DNA of 64,000 nucleotides, taken from assembly GCA_964016885.1 (NCBI GenBank), contig OZ024745.1, positions 26,598,001 to 26,662,000 on the forward strand. Direction: 5' to 3'. Source of the DNA: Eledone cirrhosa. Lineage: Eukaryota. The notes beneath the pieces were generated by a model. The model was not told the origin of the DNA. It did not search any database and was given only the letters and a program-made list of their open reading frames with translations. Position 1 is the stretch's first letter. Each line of letters starts with the position of its first letter. Positions 11,934 to 60,987 of the stretch are shown in pieces. A program made the position numbers and the translations under genes.

Positions 11934-12011
11934 TATATACACACATACACACACACACATACACATACACATATATAAAGATATATATACACACACACAC
12001 ACATATAATAA

Positions 12012-12068
<57 letters not shown>

Positions 12069-12619
12069 TATAGAGACATATATATACTCACACACACATA
12101 CACACATACATATACGCATATATACACATACATACACATCCATGTATGCGTATATACATACAAACACCACCACACGCTCACCCAACTCAGACATACATAA
12201 ATAAAGGGATATACATACACATATATACATATATAAATAGAGATACATATACACATATAAATATATACACACGTACACACACAAATACACATACATACAC
12301 ACATACATATATATACACACACACATACACATATACACATATATACATATATATACATACACATATATACACACATATATATACACACATATATATACAT
12401 ATATACATACACATACATATATATATAAAAAAATAAAGAAATAAAATAAATAAATAAATAAATTAATTAATACACACAGTCAGACAAATATGCACAGATG
12501 TACATATACACATATATATAAATACATACACACATTTATATACACATACATATATATATATATACACACACACATACACATATATATACACACATACACA
12601 CATCAACTACAAATATATT

Positions 12620-28904: not shown

Positions 28905-29264
28905 TACGACGGTCAACTGAAAAGGTCATAGGCTGACTATGGTGGATTGATGCTAGAGCTGTGAAATCTTGAATACATTAATTTCAACTCTTCTTATTAA
29001 TAACTGCATTGTATCTTTCCAGGGACTATGTTGAAAAAATAAACCCCATCTGGCCATTCCATGAGAGTATCTTGATTAGCCTAACTTTTCAACCTATGAA
29101 GGATTGATGTTAGAGCTGTGAAATCTTGCATACATTAATTTCAATTCTTCTTATTAGTCACTGCAGTGTATCTTTTCAGGGACTATGTTGAAAAAAGAAA
29201 CCTCCTTTAGTCATTCCATGAGAGTATCTTGGTCAACCTAACAACTTTTCAGCCAACTCTCGTA
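28905..29264 (+). mobile_element. Tc1/mariner-type MITE with an internal ~155-bp tandem duplication
   Basis: Imperfect TIRs ta-cgacggtcaactgaaaagg / aacttttcagccaactctcg-ta. The body is shared with 32747 and 53680. Confidence 0.7.
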
Positions 29265-31729: not shown

Positions 31730-31775
31730 TTATAAAAATATATATATATATTTTTAATTATATTTATATATATAT

Positions 31776-32219
31776 ATACGATATATTAACAAATGGAAAC
31801 TATATTTATAAAACCATATTTATTTCATTATACATATGTCAAGGACACCAAGTTAAATTATGGTGTGCTTTCATCAGATAAAATATAATATAGAGCAGTT
31901 TTATAAATAAATATTGACATACCCTTAAAGAATGCGACCATTTCTGTTGGAAGCTCCCGGATAGAAATGGTTGCATTCTTTAAGGGTATGTCAATATTTA
32001 TTTATAAAACTGCTCTATATTATATTTTATCTGATGAAAGCACACCATAATTTAACTTGGTGTCCTTGAAATATGTATAATGAAATAAATATGGTTTTAT
32101 AAATATAGTTTCCATTTGTTAATATATCGTATTTTTACTCCAATAATTTGTTGAGTGCTTTATATCAGTTATAAAAATATTTGCTTCTTGTATCCCAACA
32201 ATTTAAATATAACTTCTAC

Positions 32220-32222
<3 letters not shown>
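31776..32222 (+). mobile_element. Fold-back HHR element: 170-bp arms (31776-31945 / 31963-32132) plus a 90-bp extension, in (TA)n
   Basis: Near-perfect palindrome, homologous to 33227-33522. Confidence 0.88.
32023..32087 (+). ncRNA. Type-I hammerhead ribozyme; the mirror copy at 31821-31885 has GAAA changed to GACA
   Basis: tattttat-CTGATGA-aag-c-acacca..tggtgt-c-ctt-GAAA-T-ATGT-A-TA-atgaaata. Confidence 0.82.
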
Positions 32223-32264
<42 letters not shown>

Positions 32265-32512
32265 CATATGTAGGTACATATATAGATACATACATAGATA
32301 CATACATATATATAGAGAGAGACAGAGAGAGGGGGAATGGGGGAGATGGAGATATGGATACGTAGATAGATGGTGTGCGCGAATGTAGTATGCATGTAGC
32401 AAACGTTTGATATGGGTTGGTAGTATTGGTTATCACATACACATACAATACATACTTCTAATATATAAGCTTTCTCGTATTTTACCCATAATACAAACTT
32501 GAACAATGTATT

Positions 32513-32652
32513 CATAGAGTTATGGCCCTTTACACTCTGAGTTCAAATCCGCCGAGATTAACTTTGCCTTTCATCCTTACGGGGTTGATAAAATAAAGGA
32601 CCTGTAATGCACTGGGTAATTGCTGGCCTTGTGTCTAAAGTAGAAACAATTA
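32513..32652 (+). mobile_element. 5'-truncated CORE-type SINE
   Basis: Family match from catagagtt to gtagaaacaatt. Confidence 0.88.
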
Positions 32653-32653
32653 T

Positions 32654-32746
<93 letters not shown>

Positions 32747-32749
<3 letters not shown>

Positions 32750-32955
32750 GAGGGTCGGGGCTGCAAAAAGGTTCACAGGCTGACTATGAAGGAAGAAAGC
32801 CGGAATCTTGCATGCATAAATTTCAACTCTTCTTATTAATATATGCATTGTTTCTTTCCAGAGCCCTTGTTGAATATTAAACCTCATTTCACCATTTCAT
32901 AAAAGTGTCTTAGTCAGCATATGAACTTTTCAGCAACTGAACTTTTCGACCGATC
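32747..32955 (+). mobile_element. Mariner-type MITE copy
   Basis: Starts tacgagggtcgg. Body aatttcaactcttcttattaat..gcattgtttctttccag is shared with 28905. Confidence 0.65.
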
Positions 32956-33178
32956 CATGTGTGTCTAATGTAGAGACCTAATTTTAAGAACGAATGAAGA
33001 AAATTACCTGATTTTTAAAAAGAGGGATATCTAGAAGAAAAGACAGGCAGTGACAGATTTATCCCCCAAATATATTACCTAGAAAGTCATTAGGTGTATT
33101 TAATTACCAAGCAACAGGATCACGAATATGTTCTATCACTGACACATCTTACATACTTACGAATGTATATTTATAAAA

Positions 33179-33226
<48 letters not shown>

Positions 33227-33229
<3 letters not shown>

Positions 33230-33522
33230 ACCGTTGTTTTTGGAGGCCATCCGGATAGCCTCCAAAAACAACGGTCACCTTTTTGAAAGGGTACGTCAAT
33301 ATCTATTTGTAAAACTGTTATATATTGTATTTTGTCTGATGAAGGCATACCATGATTTAACTTGGTATCCTTGAAATATATATAATGAAATAAATATGGT
33401 TTTATAAATATAGTTTCCATTTATTAATATTCTATATGTACTCCAAATATTTGTCGAGTGCTTTATATCAGTTATAATAATATTTGCTTGTTGTATCCCA
33501 ACAATTTAAATAGAACTTTTGC
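33227..33522 (+). mobile_element. Second copy of the fold-back HHR family, with only a 21-bp inverted arm
   Basis: gtgaccgttgtttttggaggc-catccggata-gcctccaaaaacaacggtcac, followed by a body homologous to 31963-32222. Confidence 0.88.
33328..33392 (+). ncRNA. Type-I hammerhead ribozyme
   Basis: tattttgt-CTGATGA-agg-c-atacca..tggtat-c-ctt-GAAA-T-ATAT-A-TA-atgaaata. Stem II shows a C-G to T-A compensatory change versus 32023. Confidence 0.85.
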
Positions 33523-33607
33523 ATATATATATATATATATATATAGTTATAGTTATAGTTATATTGTTGTTAATTTGATGCAGACAAACTTTATTTGTGG
33601 TGGTTTG

Positions 33608-33765
33608 TAGGCAGCAAATTAATAAAATCTTTAGTACGTTCGATAGAATGCTTCACCGTATTTTTTCTGACTCTGCGTTCTGAGTTGAAATACAGCCGAA
33701 ATAAACGTTGCCTTTCATCCGTTTGCGGTCAATAGATAAAGTGCCAGTCCAATGAGGATTGAATT
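33608..33765 (+). mobile_element. Old diverged CORE-type SINE
   Basis: ttctgagttgaaatacagccga..gcctttcatccgtttgcggtcaatagataaagtgccagt. Confidence 0.7.
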
Positions 33766-35894: not shown

Positions 35895-36082
35895 CGGTGG
35901 ATTGGCAGAATAGGTAGACCGTCGGACACCCTACTTCGCATCATAGAGTTACGTCCCTTTATGTTCTGAGTTCAAATCGCGCCGAGGTTAACTTTTCCTT
36001 TCATCCTTACGGGGTCGATAAAATAAAGTACCAGTAATGCACTGGGATAATTGCCGGCCTTGTGCCAAAAGTAGAAACAATT
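35895..36082 (+). mobile_element. CORE-type SINE
   Basis: Full-length family match. Confidence 0.9.
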
Positions 36083-36329: not shown

Positions 36330-36495
36330 AAGGGTTGGACGCCATGCTTTCGAGCATAGAGTTACGGCCCTTTATGATCTGAGTTCAAATCCCGCCGAGG
36401 TTAACTTTTCTTTTCATCCTTACGGAGTCGATAAAATAAAGTACCAGTAATGCACTGGGATAATTGCTGGCGTTGTGCCAAAAGTAGAAACAATT
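36330..36495 (+). mobile_element. CORE-type SINE, slightly 5'-truncated
   Basis: Family match. Confidence 0.9.
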
Positions 36496-37559: not shown

Positions 37560-40244
37560 AGGTGGTGGTATGGTGGTGGTTGTGGCGGTGGTGATGATGG
37601 TATGGTGGTCGTGGTGGTGGTGTTGGTGGTGGTATGGTGGTGTTGGTGATGGTATGGTGGTGGTGGTGGTGGTGGTGGTATTGATGGTGGTAGTGTTGGT
37701 GGTGGTATTGATGGTGGTGGTGGTGGTGGTGGTATGGTGGTGTTGGTGGTGGTATGGTGGTGGTGGTGGTGTTGGTGGTGGTGGTGTTGTGGTGGTGGTG
37801 TGATGGTGGTGGTGGTGGTCGTGGTATGGTGGTGTTGGTGGTGGTATGGTGGTGGTGGTGGTGATGGTGGTGGTGATGGTATGGTGGTGGTGGTGGTGGT
37901 GGTGATGGTGGGGGTGATGGTATGGTGGTGGTGGTGGTGGTGGTGGTGGTGGTGGTGGTGGTGGTGGTGGTGGTATGGTGGTGGTGGTATGGTGGTGGTG
38001 GTGGTGGTGGTGGCGGTGGTGTTGGTGGTGATGATGGTGGTGGTGTGATGGTATTGGTGGTGGTGGTGTGATGGTGGTGGTGGTGGTGGTGGTGGTGGTG
38101 GTGGTGGTGGTGGTGGTGGTGGTGGTGGTGGTATTGATGGTGGTGGTGGTGGTGGTGGTGGTGGTGGTGGTGGTATGGTGGTGGTATGGTGGTGGTGGTG
38201 GTGGTATGGTGGTGGTGGTGGTGTTGGTGGTGGTGTTGGTATGGTGGTGGTGGTGGTGGTGGTGGTGGTAGTAGTGGTGATGGTATGGTGGTGGTGGTGG
38301 TATGGTGGTGGTGGTATGGTGGTGGTGGTGTGATGGTGGTGGTGATATGGTGGTGTTGGTATGGTGGTGGTGGTGGTAGTGGTGGTGATGGTATGGTGGT
38401 GGTGGTGGTGGTGGTGGCGGTGGTGTTGGTGGTGATGATGGTGGTGGTGTGATGGTATTGGTGGTGGTGGTGGTATGGTGGTGTGATGGTGGTGGTGGTG
38501 GTGGTGGTGGTGGTGGTGGTATTGATGGTGGTGGTGGTGGTGGTGGTGGTGGTGAGATAGTGGTGGTGGTGGTGGTATGGTGGTGGTATGGTGGTGGTGG
38601 TGGTGGTGTGGTGGTATGGTGGTGGTGGTGGTGTTGGTGGTGGTGTTGGTATGGTGGTGGTGGTGGTGGTGGTGGTAGTAGTGGTGATGGTATGGTGGTG
38701 GTGGTATGGTGGTGGTGGTATGGTGGTGGTGGTGTGATGGTGGTGGTGATATAGTGGTGTTGGTATGGTGGTGGTGGTGGTAGTGGTGGTGATGGTATGG
38801 TGGTGGTGGTGGTGTGATGGTGGTGGTGGTGGTGGCGGTATGGTGGTGGTGGTATGGTGGCGTTGGTGGTGGTGGTATGGTGGTGGTGGTGGTGGTGGTG
38901 GTGGTGGTGGTTGTGGAGGTGGTGGTATGGTGGTGGTGGTATGGTGGTGGTGGTGTGATGGTGGTGGTGATATGGTGGTGTTGGTATGGTGGTGGTGGTG
39001 GTAGTGGTGGTGATGGTATGGTGGTGGTGGTGGTGTGATGGTGCTGGTGGTGGTGGCGGTATGGTGGTGGTGGTATGGTGGCGTTGGTGGTGGTGGTATG
39101 GTGGTGGTGGTGGTGGTGGTGGTGGTGGTGGTGGTTGTGGAGGTGGTGGTATGGTGGTGGTGGTAATGGTGGTGTGGTGGTGGTGGTGGTGGTGGTGGTG
39201 TCGTGGTGATGATGTGTTGGTGGTGGTGGTGGTATGGTGGTGGTATGGTGGTGGTGGTGGTGGTGGTGGTGGTGGCGGTGGTGGTGCTGGTGGTGGTGGT
39301 GGTATGGTGATGGTGGTGGTGTTGGTGTTGTTGGTGGTGGTATGGTGGTGGTATGGTGGTGGTATGGTGGTGGTGATGGTGGTGGTGGTTGTGATGGTGA
39401 TGGTGGTGGTGGTGTGATGGTGGTGGTGTGATGGTGGTGTTGGTGGTGGTGGTCGTATGATGGTGTGGTGGTATTATGGCGTTATGGTGGTGGTGGTGTG
39501 GTGGTGTGGTGGTGTGGTGGTGGTGGTATGGTGGTGGTGATATAGTGGTGGTGGTGTGATGGTGGTGGTGATATGGTGGTGGTGGTATGGTGGTGGTGGT
39601 GGTAGTGGTGGTGATGGTATAGTGGTGATGGTGGTGTGATGGTGCTGGTGGTGGTGGCGGCATGGTGGTGGTGGTGGTATGGTGGTGGTGGTGGTGGTGG
39701 TGGTGGTGGTGGTATGGTGGTGTTGGTGGTGGTGGTATGGTGGTGGTGGTGGTGGTGGTGGTGGTGGAAGTGGTGGTATGGTGGTGGTGGTGGTGGTGGT
39801 GGTAATAGTGGTGTGGTGGTGGTGTCGTGGTGATGATGGTGTTGGTGGTGGTGGTGATGGTGGTGGTGTTGGTGTTGTTGGTGGTGGTATGGTGGTGGTA
39901 TGGTGGTGGTATGGTGGTGGTGACGGTGGTGGTGGTGGTGATGGTGATGGTGGTGGTGGTTTGATGGTGGAGGTGTGGTGGTGGTGGTCGTCGTCGTATG
40001 ATGGTGTGGTGGTATTATGACGTTATGTTGGTGGTGGTGTGGTGGTGTGGTGATGTGGTGGTGGTGGTATGATGGTATGGTGGTATGATGGTGGTATGGT
40101 GGTGTTGGTGTGCTGGTGTGGTGTGGTGGTGTGGTGGTATGATGGTGTGGTGTTATGATGGCGGTATGGTGGTGGTGGTGGTGATGTGGTGGTATGGTGG
40201 TGTGGTGGAGGTGTGGTGGTGGTAGTGATGTAGATGGTGGTGAT
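37560..40244. repeat. 2.7-kb (GGT)n-based low-complexity array with internal block duplications
   Basis: GGT runs punctuated by ggtat, gtgat and gtgtt. Blocks repeat, for example 38755-38990 and 38990-39160. Confidence 0.95.
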
Positions 40245-57184: not shown

Positions 57185-57238
<54 letters not shown>

Positions 57239-57873
57239 AGGATGAATATAAAATGAAAGTGCTTTTGTTAAAAAAGGAATTTATTAGGTATTGACATATG
57301 TTTCTGTAACAGACCGAATACCTATGTATCGCTGCTTGCGTAATCATATAATGTTAGCAAGTATTCGATAGCAAATGTATAATCAGTTGTCACTTCTTCA
57401 GAGATTTTGGATAAACTGGATAAAATCAGAAAAATTGAAGTATTATATTAGTAAAAGAGGAAGGAACAGAGGGGATAGAATATGACAGATGGTAAAATAA
57501 TTTACTGCTAAACAAGTATATAATGGGTTTTTAATGAGAATACCATGAGTAAATCTAAATAAGAATTTTGTGAGTGCCAATTTTAATCTCTACTTGACCA
57601 ACTGGACAGTGGACAGGGCTGGTCATTTGGTGCAGTAGTATTAACTATAAAGTGTCAATTGGGGAAGGGGGAGATTTCGATTGCTACTAAATAACATCAA
57701 TGCTAGTATCCAGCTGGTATATGCACTAGGGAATTGAATCAAGAAATCAGAAATCTCATTTTATCTATAGCAGTTTGTATTAAAAGGTAAATAATAGAAG
57801 AGTTGATAGAATTAAGACTAATAAAGAATGTTCATATCTATTTTGACAATAAAACGGGGATAGAGACAGGCGT

Positions 57874-60026
57874 TCAATCCTGGTAGTATTTATAATATGA
57901 AAATGTAGATTTTAAGCGATGGTTACAGTATAACGATCGCTCTATTCTGTTATTTAATAAAATGTTTTTGGATTTCATAATACAAAATAATTCTACATTA
58001 CATAATTTACAAAATTCCTGTCCATTGGAATATGGGGGGGGGGGGGGGGGGGGGGCAGCCGCTATTATATCCCATTTTAGGTGAAATTGTTGGTTATTTT
58101 CACGCAGCTGCCAAGCCTTGTCTGCGAGTGTTGTTACATAACGCTGGTTTTCATGTTTTATCGAATAACGATGTCTTATAAAGGCGTGATTTGAAGGAGG
58201 TGGCTGTAGATCCCACATAGTACCACTTCTGTCTATCCGATTCGATAGTACATTTGTATACGATGTTGCGTTCAAGACACTGATTGTTCAACGGACACAT
58301 TCCTGGTTGGACACAGTTGCAATTACAATTTTGCGTTGTTGTATTGCCATGGATGGGTTGATGAGGTTGCTTATGTAGGACAGGATGTTGTTTGTTGTTT
58401 TGTGATGTTATAGCTAATGTTTTACGTGTATTGTTATGTGTTGGAAGGCGTTTATACAACCGTTTTGCGTTAAGCTTTTTTATATGTTGTTCAATATTAG
58501 GGGCGGTTGAATATGAAAGTCGAATAGTGTTAGGGTTTAAGATTTTATTATATTTATGTGATGTTGGAAAGTGTTTTCTAACTAATCGAAAGAATTTTGA
58601 GGGTAGATTGGTTTTAATAGATTTGTTATAGACCGGGTTGTACCAGATATACTCCTTACATCGCCTTCTGTTTGGTGGTGTGCGACTATTATTGTGTCTA
58701 TTGCGGTAGTGTATGTATGGTGGTGATTCTGTGCTATTTCTACTCCTATGCGATTTATTTTGGGTGTTTTGGTGATCATTGACTATATACTCTATATTAT
58801 CTAGGTGACCGGCTTTCCTAAGTGCATCATCATAATACTCGGCATGTTCTTTGAAGGTTTGTTGGTTGGACGATAGGCGGGAGATTCTAAGAGAAACATA
58901 TCTAGGGATGGATTTAATTATAGAGAGTGGATGGTTAGAACTCGTATTTACATATTTAAGGTTCTCATTTAGTTTATGGAACGGTTTAATCGTATCTGTA
59001 TTGAGATTGAAAGTAACATCAAGGAAATTGACCTCTTTGAGGTTATATTCAAATGTAATATTTAATCCTAGTTCTTTAAAAAGTTTTCTGATATTTTTAC
59101 GTATCCTTTCTAAATTCTGGTTATTCATATGCTTAACTAATAGGAGCGCATCGTCACGGTAAATTCCACCGTGGAGATCCTTGAATTTTCCTTGTAATCT
59201 GTGGGTGATATAAATTCCCACAAGATCTGTTACTTCCGCCGAATCATTAGAACCCATAGTGATATCAAAATTAGAAGGTCTATCTTTGCGAACCCAGTAG
59301 CTATCATCGAATTTAACTATAGTTTTTCTCGCTTCCATAATAATTTTAATTTCAGCATCCGTAAGGTCGGAATTATCCTTAGCGAACGAAAGAGCTTCAT
59401 GTAGAGTATCAGGTGAAATTGAGGAATAATATTCATCAATATCAAACTGAATAAATTTTGATTTTTTCTTATCAGTAATGTTGTTAAACCATCTTATTGC
59501 TTCATGAGTGTTACCCCATAGTTTAATCTCTACTTTAACCTTAACTTGGGGGATAATTATGTCTAGTATATATTTGCTAATTTTACCTATATCAGATTTA
59601 GAGGGGCATATAAGTCTAATATTAGGGTTAGTATCGAAGTTTACCTTGTGGTCCTTCAGGTTGAAGGATGGTATAGCTGGTGTTAAGGGTTGCGTTCTAT
59701 CGTCAATACAAAGTTTTTTAACAATATCACATGCCGAGTTGTTGATGTTTTTAAGTGTGGCTTCATTAGTTTTCCTGTATTTTTTATGCAATTCCTTACG
59801 GATGAAGTTATTGTAAGTGTCCACATCCATGGTATATACGTTTGATGTTTTGTCTGCTCTAACAATAATTCCATTGGCGTTTTTTAGATTATTGAGCAGT
59901 GCCGTGATGTCATTCTGTAGTTTATTGTTTTTACGTTTTGTAAATTTGATCTCCATGATCATATCCATTAGGTCTTGTTCAAATGCATCCAAAAGTGGGT
60001 TTGAGGGTGGGTTCTTGTAAGATTTA
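57874..60026 (-). pseudogene. PLE RT plus GIY-YIG ORF, 5'-truncated, with one frameshift near 58183
   Basis: ADKT, FIQFDIDEYYSSI, FDITMGSNDSAEVTDLVG, GIYRDD, NFLDVTFNL and CNC..CPL..C..NIVY..YYVGST. It continues in the 57874 frame as LKWDII..CKLC..LLN..CNH. Confidence 0.92.
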
Positions 60027-60646
60027 AATGGACAGGAATTTTGTAAATTATGTAATGTAGAATTATTTTGTATTATGAAATCCAAAAACATTTTATTAAA
60101 TAACAGAATAGAGCGATCGTTATACTGTAACCATCGCTTAAAATCTACATTTTCATATTATAAATACTACCAGGATTGAACGCCTGTCTCTATCCCCGTT
60201 TTATTGTCAAAATAGATATGAACATTCTTTATTAGTCTTAATTCTATCAACTCTTCTATTATTTACCTTTTAATACAAACTGCTATAGATAAAATGAGAT
60301 TTCTGATTTCTTGATTCAATTCCCTAGTGCATATACCAGCTGGATACTAGCATTGATGTTATTTAGTAGTAATCGAAATCTCCCCCTTCCCCAATTGACA
60401 CTTTATAGTTAATACTACTGCACCAAATGACCAGCCCTGTCCACTGTCCAGTTGGTCAAGTAGAGATTAAAATTGGCACTCCCAAAATTCTTATTTAGAT
60501 TTACTCATGGTATTCTCATTAAAAACCCATTATATACTTGTTTAGCAGTAAATTATTTTACCATCTGTCATATTCTATCCCCTCTGTTCCTTCCTCTTTT
60601 ACTAATATAAATACTTCAATTTTTCTGATTTTATCCAGTTTATCCG

Positions 60647-60769
60647 AAATCTCTGAAGAAGTGACAACTGATTATACATTTGCTATCGAATACTTGCTAA
60701 CATTATATGATTACGCAAGCAGCGATACATAGGTATTCGGTCTGTTACAGAAACATATGTCAATACCTA
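60647..60769 (+). ncRNA. HHR-like motif with ~90-nt stem II in the pLTR (mirror copy at 57293-57401, minus)
   Basis: CTGAAGA-a-gtgaca[long hairpin]tgttac-a-GAAA-C-ATAT-G-TC. Canonical stem I pairing is poor. Confidence 0.55.
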
Positions 60770-60922
60770 ATAAATTCCTTTTTTAACAAAAGCACTTTCA
60801 TTTTATATTCATCCTTTCTACATTTCTCCGGAATATAATTTATACTCGTTGAGCAAACCTGCACGTACGCTGTTCATCTCTAACGTAACGATATATTATC
60901 ACTACATTATTGATAACCTGAA

Positions 60923-60987
<65 letters not shown>

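Follow-up and report, generated by a model that had tools for sequence, protein, structure and literature searches.

The window analysed here is a stretch of 64,000 nucleotides from Eledone cirrhosa and has the character of AT-rich animal DNA dense in microsatellites. It contains two palindromes, copy 1 and copy 2, which are 5'-truncated head-to-head pLTRs of a Hydra-clade Penelope-like retroelement. Positions within the element are numbered with the C of CTATCC as +1, placing the predicted hammerhead cleavage at 136, the tail-less end at 187 and the tail end at 275. In window coordinates, the features of the two copies are as follows.

31771-31945 and 31963-32137: palindrome of copy 1, arms of 175 nt each, 98% complementary, with a 17-nt loop
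31776..31964, minus strand: inverted arm of copy 1, spanning the pLTR between the stop point (CTATCC) and the tail-less end, abutting (TA)n
31963..32222, plus strand: sense arm of copy 1, pLTR through the tail to (TA)n
32023..32087, plus strand: type I hammerhead of copy 1, with CTGATGA at 32031-32037, stem II at 32038-32067 and GAAA at 32068-32071
32133..32222, plus strand: tail of copy 1, ~90 nt, bounded by two fixed outer ends
32138..32155, plus strand: CTCC..TTGAG motif of copy 1, just 3' of the tail-less end
33227..33258, minus strand: short inverted arm of copy 2, 32 nt of the element from the stop point CTATCC, abutting (TA)n
33227-33247 with 33258-33278: stem of copy 2, 21 bp, z = -8.4 against shuffles
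33258..33525, plus strand: sense arm of copy 2, with hammerhead core at 33336, GAAA at 33373, motif at 33441-33458, and tail

Both palindromes had been predicted from the sequence and both are real; the aligned arms of copy 1 differ by two mismatches in 170 bases. The turning sequences are homologous, as was also predicted: both left arms terminate at GGATAG (31964 and 33258), which corresponds to CTATCC of the intact element read on the opposite strand. The sense arm of copy 1 begins 19 nt inside this point and shares two nucleotides (AG) with the left arm. In both copies the loop comes from the left arm and not from a common hairpin, 19 nt of it in copy 1 and 11 nt in a mutation-free reading of copy 2, for which the aligner picked another reading as CTATCCGGATGG is nearly palindromic. 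The arms within a copy do match each other better than they match the other copy (two differences in 160 bases against 20 in 160), but this does not support any particular mechanism, because the two copies come from different subfamilies (29 differences in 247 positions) and the same would be expected under any model.

Both sense arms carry a type I hammerhead consisting of CTGATGA, a stem II of 10 bp containing one C-C mismatch, GAAA and a short stem III. Cleavage of the copy 1 hammerhead is predicted from its sequence to fall after 32079; in the inverted arm of copy 1 the GAAA has become GACA. The compensatory change in stem II that had been pointed out between the copies is genuine, the pair being C-G in 26, T-A in 15 and unpaired in two of 43 sense arms. 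Stems I and II are paired, with covariation, and the core is intact in 44 of the 56 sense arms that span it. An Rfam scan of the window gave no hits at the gathering threshold, hammerheads included. Hammerhead cleavage was considered as the source of the 5' ends and rejected, with only two of 66 truncated sense arms beginning within 134-140; no end appears to be set by the hammerhead.

The window holds several other repeats. Weak matches (72-78%) to the 3' region of the same element at 12000-12400 represent a further decayed fragment. An abundant short repeat, GAGTTCAAATC..CGCCGAG.., occurs at 32513-32616, 33677-33734, 35942-36046 and 36355-36459, and one copy of it interrupts a left arm at locus L008; it resembles the octopus tRNA-derived SINEs. 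Fragments of another repeat, which begins TACGAGG beside (TA)n, lie at 32750-33170 and 29003-29253, and we take this to be like the end of a mariner-type DNA transposon. A strongly G/T-skewed 2-kb stretch (38001-40000, GC skew 0.97) is probably a simple repeat array.

The parent element

A 22-mer from the 3' end of the element (the tail) has 4,923 exact matches in the 3.0-Gb assembly, and its reversed control has none. The repeat adjoins an ORF in 20 fetched ORF-bearing loci, often on both sides, and ends with or without the ~90-nt tail. An intact copy consists of pLTR and tail, ORF, 3' region and a further pLTR that ends with or without the tail, and nearly all ends of the element adjoin (TA)n. 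The original prediction was correct in recognizing a hammerhead-bearing retroelement family; what it took for an element of ~290 nt is the end of an autonomous Penelope-like element of ~4.5 kb.

Intact ORFs of 742 and 735 amino acids contain DKT (KSDKTNN), YRDD, YVGST..FK.R, CNCRNKSNC (CxCX5C), CDLC, CCRH together with a GIY-YIG-type stretch that is C-terminal; the motifs CNCRNKSNC, CDLC and CCRH were read by eye in the 742-residue ORF, and the copy at locus L139 keeps the same motifs. The endonuclease fragment matches Pfam GIY-YIG with E = 0.0014, below the Pfam cut-off, and searches of Pfam with the full ORFs and of PDB sequences returned nothing relevant. There are 208 ORF homologues, of which the 120 listed are 30-48% identical and the named ones are from Argonauta.

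The element has the characters of EN+ Penelope-like elements: a single ORF with reverse transcriptase and GIY-YIG endonuclease, pLTRs from partial tandems with an inverted 5'-truncated copy and an optional tail, and a type I hammerhead (with predicted cleavage) in the pLTR. It also has those of the Hydra clade, namely DKT in place of DKG, the CxCX5C linker, CxxC and CxH near the C-terminus, no CCHH, and (TA)n targets. The RWK motif region reads IRWR here and IRWK in the second family described below; GxKF/Y was not seen by eye. On these described motifs the family of copies 1 and 2 (the first family) is a new family of the known Hydra clade. It is distinct from the octopus Hydra-1_Obim, because the hammerhead listed for that element is unlike the one found here. 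Two other assignments were rejected: membership of Naiad/Chlamys calls for an N-terminal endonuclease, DKA and no canonical hammerhead, whereas the endonuclease here is C-terminal, the motif is DKT and a hammerhead is present, and a non-LTR retrozyme would consist of tandem head-to-tail non-autonomous units, whereas these copies stand head-to-head or singly and are continuous with elements that bear an ORF.

The stop point and the junctions

Matches to an 18-mer just inside the shared apex show how sharply the arms stop there. Among 2,403 matches in the genome, 698 end at the A of CA-CTATCC, 255 end one base earlier and 1,450 continue, so that 953 arms stop within two bases. The stop site is the A of (T/C)CA-CTATCC; one subfamily has TCACT here. 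A hand count of the first 100 listed matches gave 41 with a C immediately after the stop, compared with 16-21% expected; at 30 inspected loci there are 11 such C bases, of which four are explained by the partner arm and seven are not. This excess suggests copying of a cap, which would make the stop point probably the 5' end of the RNA. No conserved TATA box at a fixed spacing upstream of the stop point was seen across subfamilies. One difficulty, which we count against our best model, is that the 324-326 nt from the stop point to the ATG contain 6-7 upstream ATGs (L137:2456-2784, L141 and L152), so an RNA beginning here would need splicing of an intron or unusual translation.

The original prediction placed a fixed 5'-terminal hairpin at this point, and the intact copies do not bear this out. 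No palindrome is present where they extend beyond the apex in the upstream direction. The 46 nt at their start have only weak and inconsistent folds (-6 to -9 kcal/mol), and the palindromic core is variable: besides ATCCGGAT, the forms ATCCTGAT, ATCCCGAT, ATCCAGAT and ATCCGGGA occur.

For the survey of junctions, tail matches on contig C1 were taken in order of position; the first 90 gave 89 after removal of duplicate views, and the counts exclude three views that duplicated a locus as well as copies 1 and 2 of the window. The first 30 loci were biased toward the copy 1 junction and were not used for counts. Sense arms (n = 89) start upstream of -12 in 23 cases, at -12 to 10 in 19, at 11-170 in 33 and beyond this in 14. 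Of 66 truncated sense arms, 18 begin within 12 nt of the stop point (3.1 expected). Inverted arms at the 89 loci have their outer end at 180-195, the tail-less site, in 51 cases and at the tail end in four. In the 41 direct junctions the left arm has its outer end at 187-193 in all but one (40/41), while its inner end ranges from -170 to 152 and falls within -1 to 10 in 20. The outer ends are fixed at two sites ~90 nt apart and the inner ends are variable, which is the reverse of the earlier proposal of an inverted arm of variable length. Copy 2, with its 21-bp arm, belongs to a minority: in a handful of short left arms the outer end lies at ~31-70, which is at odds with two fixed starts and would call for mispriming or a subsequent deletion. 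The predicted constancy of the apex survives as a recurrent turning point and not as a fixed one. One arm lies at the hot spot in 23 of the 41 junctions and neither does in 18, and the two inner ends agree within 3 nt in only eight; these counts show in part the scatter that the original prediction had named as evidence against itself.

In 27 of the 41 junctions part of the left arm has no counterpart in the right arm, and the right arm has a tail that the left arm lacks; both window copies are of this class. The left arm mirrors the right arm within 3 nt in eight junctions and is contained in it in six. Because the left arm has unique sequence in these 27 cases and the right arm has a unique tail, neither can be a simple fold-back copy of the other, and the simple snap-back originally proposed does not account for the junctions. 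One tailed arm is likewise paired with one tail-less arm in loci selected differently: of 75 loci picked without the tail, 31 were scorable (both arms long enough), comprising 29 pairs of a tailed and a tail-less arm, two pairs with two tails and no tail-less pairs (the script gave 30 mixed pairs and one two-tail pair, one mixed pair being reassigned on closer look). The arms overlap by at least three bases in 13 of the 41 junctions, compared with 9% in simulation. A pile-up of sense-arm starts at the inner putative start site, as blocking on a single RNA would give, is not significant (9/66 against 7.0 expected, P = 0.26) and lends no support to the use of one shared RNA molecule.

Fifteen loci whose flanks differ share the exact copy 1 junction; the truncated arm carries the tail in eight of them and the complete arm in four, the remaining three being undecided. 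The inverted arm is likely made anew at insertion, as had been suggested. The mirroring of copy-specific mutations in both arms, which was also expected, is largely absent: in 28 arm pairs, seven rare variants are common to both arms and 47 are in one arm only, and the own arm is strictly nearest in eight and tied in five. The arms of one insertion are nevertheless closer than the family median in 28 of 28 pairs. Close arms with few mirrored rare variants are expected for two copies of one source that have aged separately.

Three loci show odd arrangements. A (TA)n run lies inside the palindrome loop of L010 (near 1440-1490), L077 has two palindromic insertions facing each other, and in L012:140-1480 a copy with a 9-bp left arm is inserted into a long open reverse transcriptase frame, which we take to be RTE-like.

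A duplicated motif and the origin of the palindromes

In the first family the sequence ACTCC..TTGAGT lies five bases beyond the tail-less end, and in pLTR-ORF junctions TGCTCC..T(T/C)GAGC follows the tail end at a distance of six bases; nine of 11 junction stretches match and two are degenerate. When the 45-nt stretch after site 1 is compared with the 4.5-kb element, the second motif is its best match, and only one of 2,000 shuffles is as good. The outer pair of the motif is A-T at site 1 and G-C at site 2, a paired change. The motif hairpins are weak (-1.5 to -3.8 kcal/mol). The two-end layout with a duplicated motif could be compared with that of a second family, represented by an independent insertion in the window.

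57234..60926, minus strand: second Hydra-type Penelope insertion, with a truncated ORF (frames 58151-60157 and 57874-58287), a tail-less sense end and an inverted arm with a 107-nt tail

The protein of the second family is 44% identical to that of the first. The family is very young (99% among the listed full-length matches, with 1,819 candidates); no canonical hammerhead was found in the 700 nt before its ends, only a CTGAAGA..GAA look-alike. It has two fixed ends 107 nt apart, to which the script assigned 18 and 13 of 34 ends; of the remaining three, inspection by eye makes one a further tail end, another continues into the ORF and the last is unreadable. CTCC..TTGAG lies at +5 and +6 of the two ends, the motif at site 2 resting on one junction locus (L238). 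The pattern CTCC..TYGAG occurs nowhere else in either element and is found five times in 128 kb (both strands of the window), three of these being in the two families.

We consider it reasonably probable that each palindrome consists of two cDNAs primed by a (TA)n target, begun at two fixed start sites in the RNA and joined head-to-head. The element protein would cut both strands of the target and the RNA would be copied twice, with one cDNA per target strand and one at each fixed internal start site; both cDNAs would run toward the 5' end of the RNA and their ends would be joined through short overlaps, by microhomology or a template jump. Arms of ~190 and ~280 nt would arise if synthesis began in the upstream repeat and went on until the template ended at the 5' end of the RNA. 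The outer ends would then be the start sites of reverse transcription, by analogy with an anole element tested in vitro, although they could instead be endonuclease resolution sites, as PMC8557442 suggests. The motif would position the enzyme, probably with one subunit of a dimer at each motif. A more specific version, which we put forward tentatively for Hydra-clade Penelope elements, is one of paired initiation: the duplicated CTCC..TYGAG motif of the RNA would seat two enzyme subunits at the two starts, each would prime from one cut (TA)n strand, both would copy toward the capped 5' end and the products would be joined head-to-head. If this is true, the length of the tail is the spacing of the duplicated motif, and the long-standing signature of these elements, an inverted repeat plus a tail, is explained.

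The main rival is that one cDNA folds back and primes itself (or self-primes on an antisense template, as proposed in 2013), and that the endonuclease then cuts the long hairpin at both outer sites, so that one arm keeps the tail. Both parts have been published, self-priming in PMC3846280 and endonuclease resolution of the tail in PMC8557442. Junction palindromes are common, the eight near-perfect mirrors and six contained left arms are what folding back would give, and the closeness of paired arms is in its favour. However, the loops would often have to be 100-350 nt with 0-5 nt of pairing, and neither a hairpin nor a palindrome is conserved at the stop point. If the cut had a fixed polarity, the tail would not be on the complete arm in some loci and on the truncated arm in others that share an identical junction, and the boundaries of the tail in vitro are start sites of target-primed synthesis (PMC11167929). 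We regard this explanation as unlikely. It is very improbable that the palindromes spread as ready-made units from a few palindromic masters, or arose after insertion by rearrangement; the 15 occurrences of one exact junction point to the former and the short arm of copy 2 could be a later deletion, but that same junction has the tail on opposite arms, other junctions are highly diverse and the flanks differ. Least probable of all is a stand-alone ribozyme element of ~290 nt (retrozyme- or SINE-like) that has a fixed 5' hairpin of its own. Many copies are ~190-280 nt long and start at the same point, but 23 of the 89 sampled copies extend upstream of it, intact ORFs have this sequence on either side, 1,450 of the 2,403 arms read through the stop point and the intact copies have no hairpin.

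Comparison with known systems

Head-to-head pLTRs with a hammerhead are a known signature of Penelope-like elements and the feature itself is ordinary; inverted pLTRs, tails, hammerheads and the self-priming idea are all already published. Inverted repeats are described as frequent in PMC3681739, and hammerheads are reported in pLTRs, also as close opposite-strand pairs, in PMC4209133. Inverted pLTRs and a tail at one end are described in PMC3846280, together with the junction palindromes and their explanation by self-priming in 2013, and also in PMC8557442, which names the cause of the signature as an open question. Neither paired initiation nor a duplicated motif, such as lies beyond both outer ends in the two families here, was found for Penelope-like elements in the literature covered, with subscription journals, Repbase and most supplements outside this coverage. 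The motif makes the open question testable by mutation and predicts the tail length, and with thousands of young copies the statistics of the junctions discriminate between self-priming, endonuclease resolution and internal initiation.

The closest known relatives are the elements of the Hydra clade (Craig et al., 2021; PMC8557442), which have (TA)n targets and hammerheads and include Hydra-1_Obim. They share with the element described here the C-terminal GIY-YIG, DKT, the CxCX5C linker and CxxC plus CxH, and may share RW(K/R), as well as having in common with it a hammerhead in the pLTR, an inverted 5'-truncated copy and a tail at one end. They differ in the length of the unit (~4.5 kb here and <3 kb there) and of the tail (~90 nt here, or 107 nt in the second family, and 30-40 there). 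Penelope of Adineta vaga and of Drosophila virilis (PMC3846280, PMC2377424) similarly has inverted pLTRs placed head-to-head, palindromes at their junctions, an inverted arm shorter by the tail, variable inverted repeats and an initiator-like TCACT, the last noted in the rotifer pLTR (PMC3846280); the D. virilis element has an intron in its leader region (PMC2377424). Where PMC3846280 reads the palindromes as self-priming, the counts obtained here favour two separately primed copies. Animal non-LTR retrozymes have been presented as derivatives of PLEs (bioRxiv 10.64898/2026.07.22.740005) and likewise are short hammerhead repeats related to PLE pLTRs, but they are tandem, head-to-tail and non-autonomous, whereas the copies here are head-to-head and continuous with an autonomous element.

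The protein of the Penelope/Poseidon element PAc of Anolis carolinensis cleaves and extends both target strands, with two internal RNA start sites that bound the tail; it depends on RNA 3' of these sites but not on cleavage by the hammerhead, and a dimer is predicted (PMC11167929). The start sites are reported not to be homologous to the target and to lie in an AC-rich stem loop, which we count against our best model, and the terms 'inverted repeat' and 'head-to-head' are absent from the main text of that paper. Two internal starts bounding the tail and AT-rich targets are common to both systems. PAc differs in belonging to another clade and in having its start sites inside the ORF, whereas here they are upstream of it.

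In L1 twin priming, two primings from both target strands lead to an inverted head-to-head insertion with joining by microhomology. The second site varies in L1 and the two parts do not overlap, whereas here the starts are fixed and the arms overlap.
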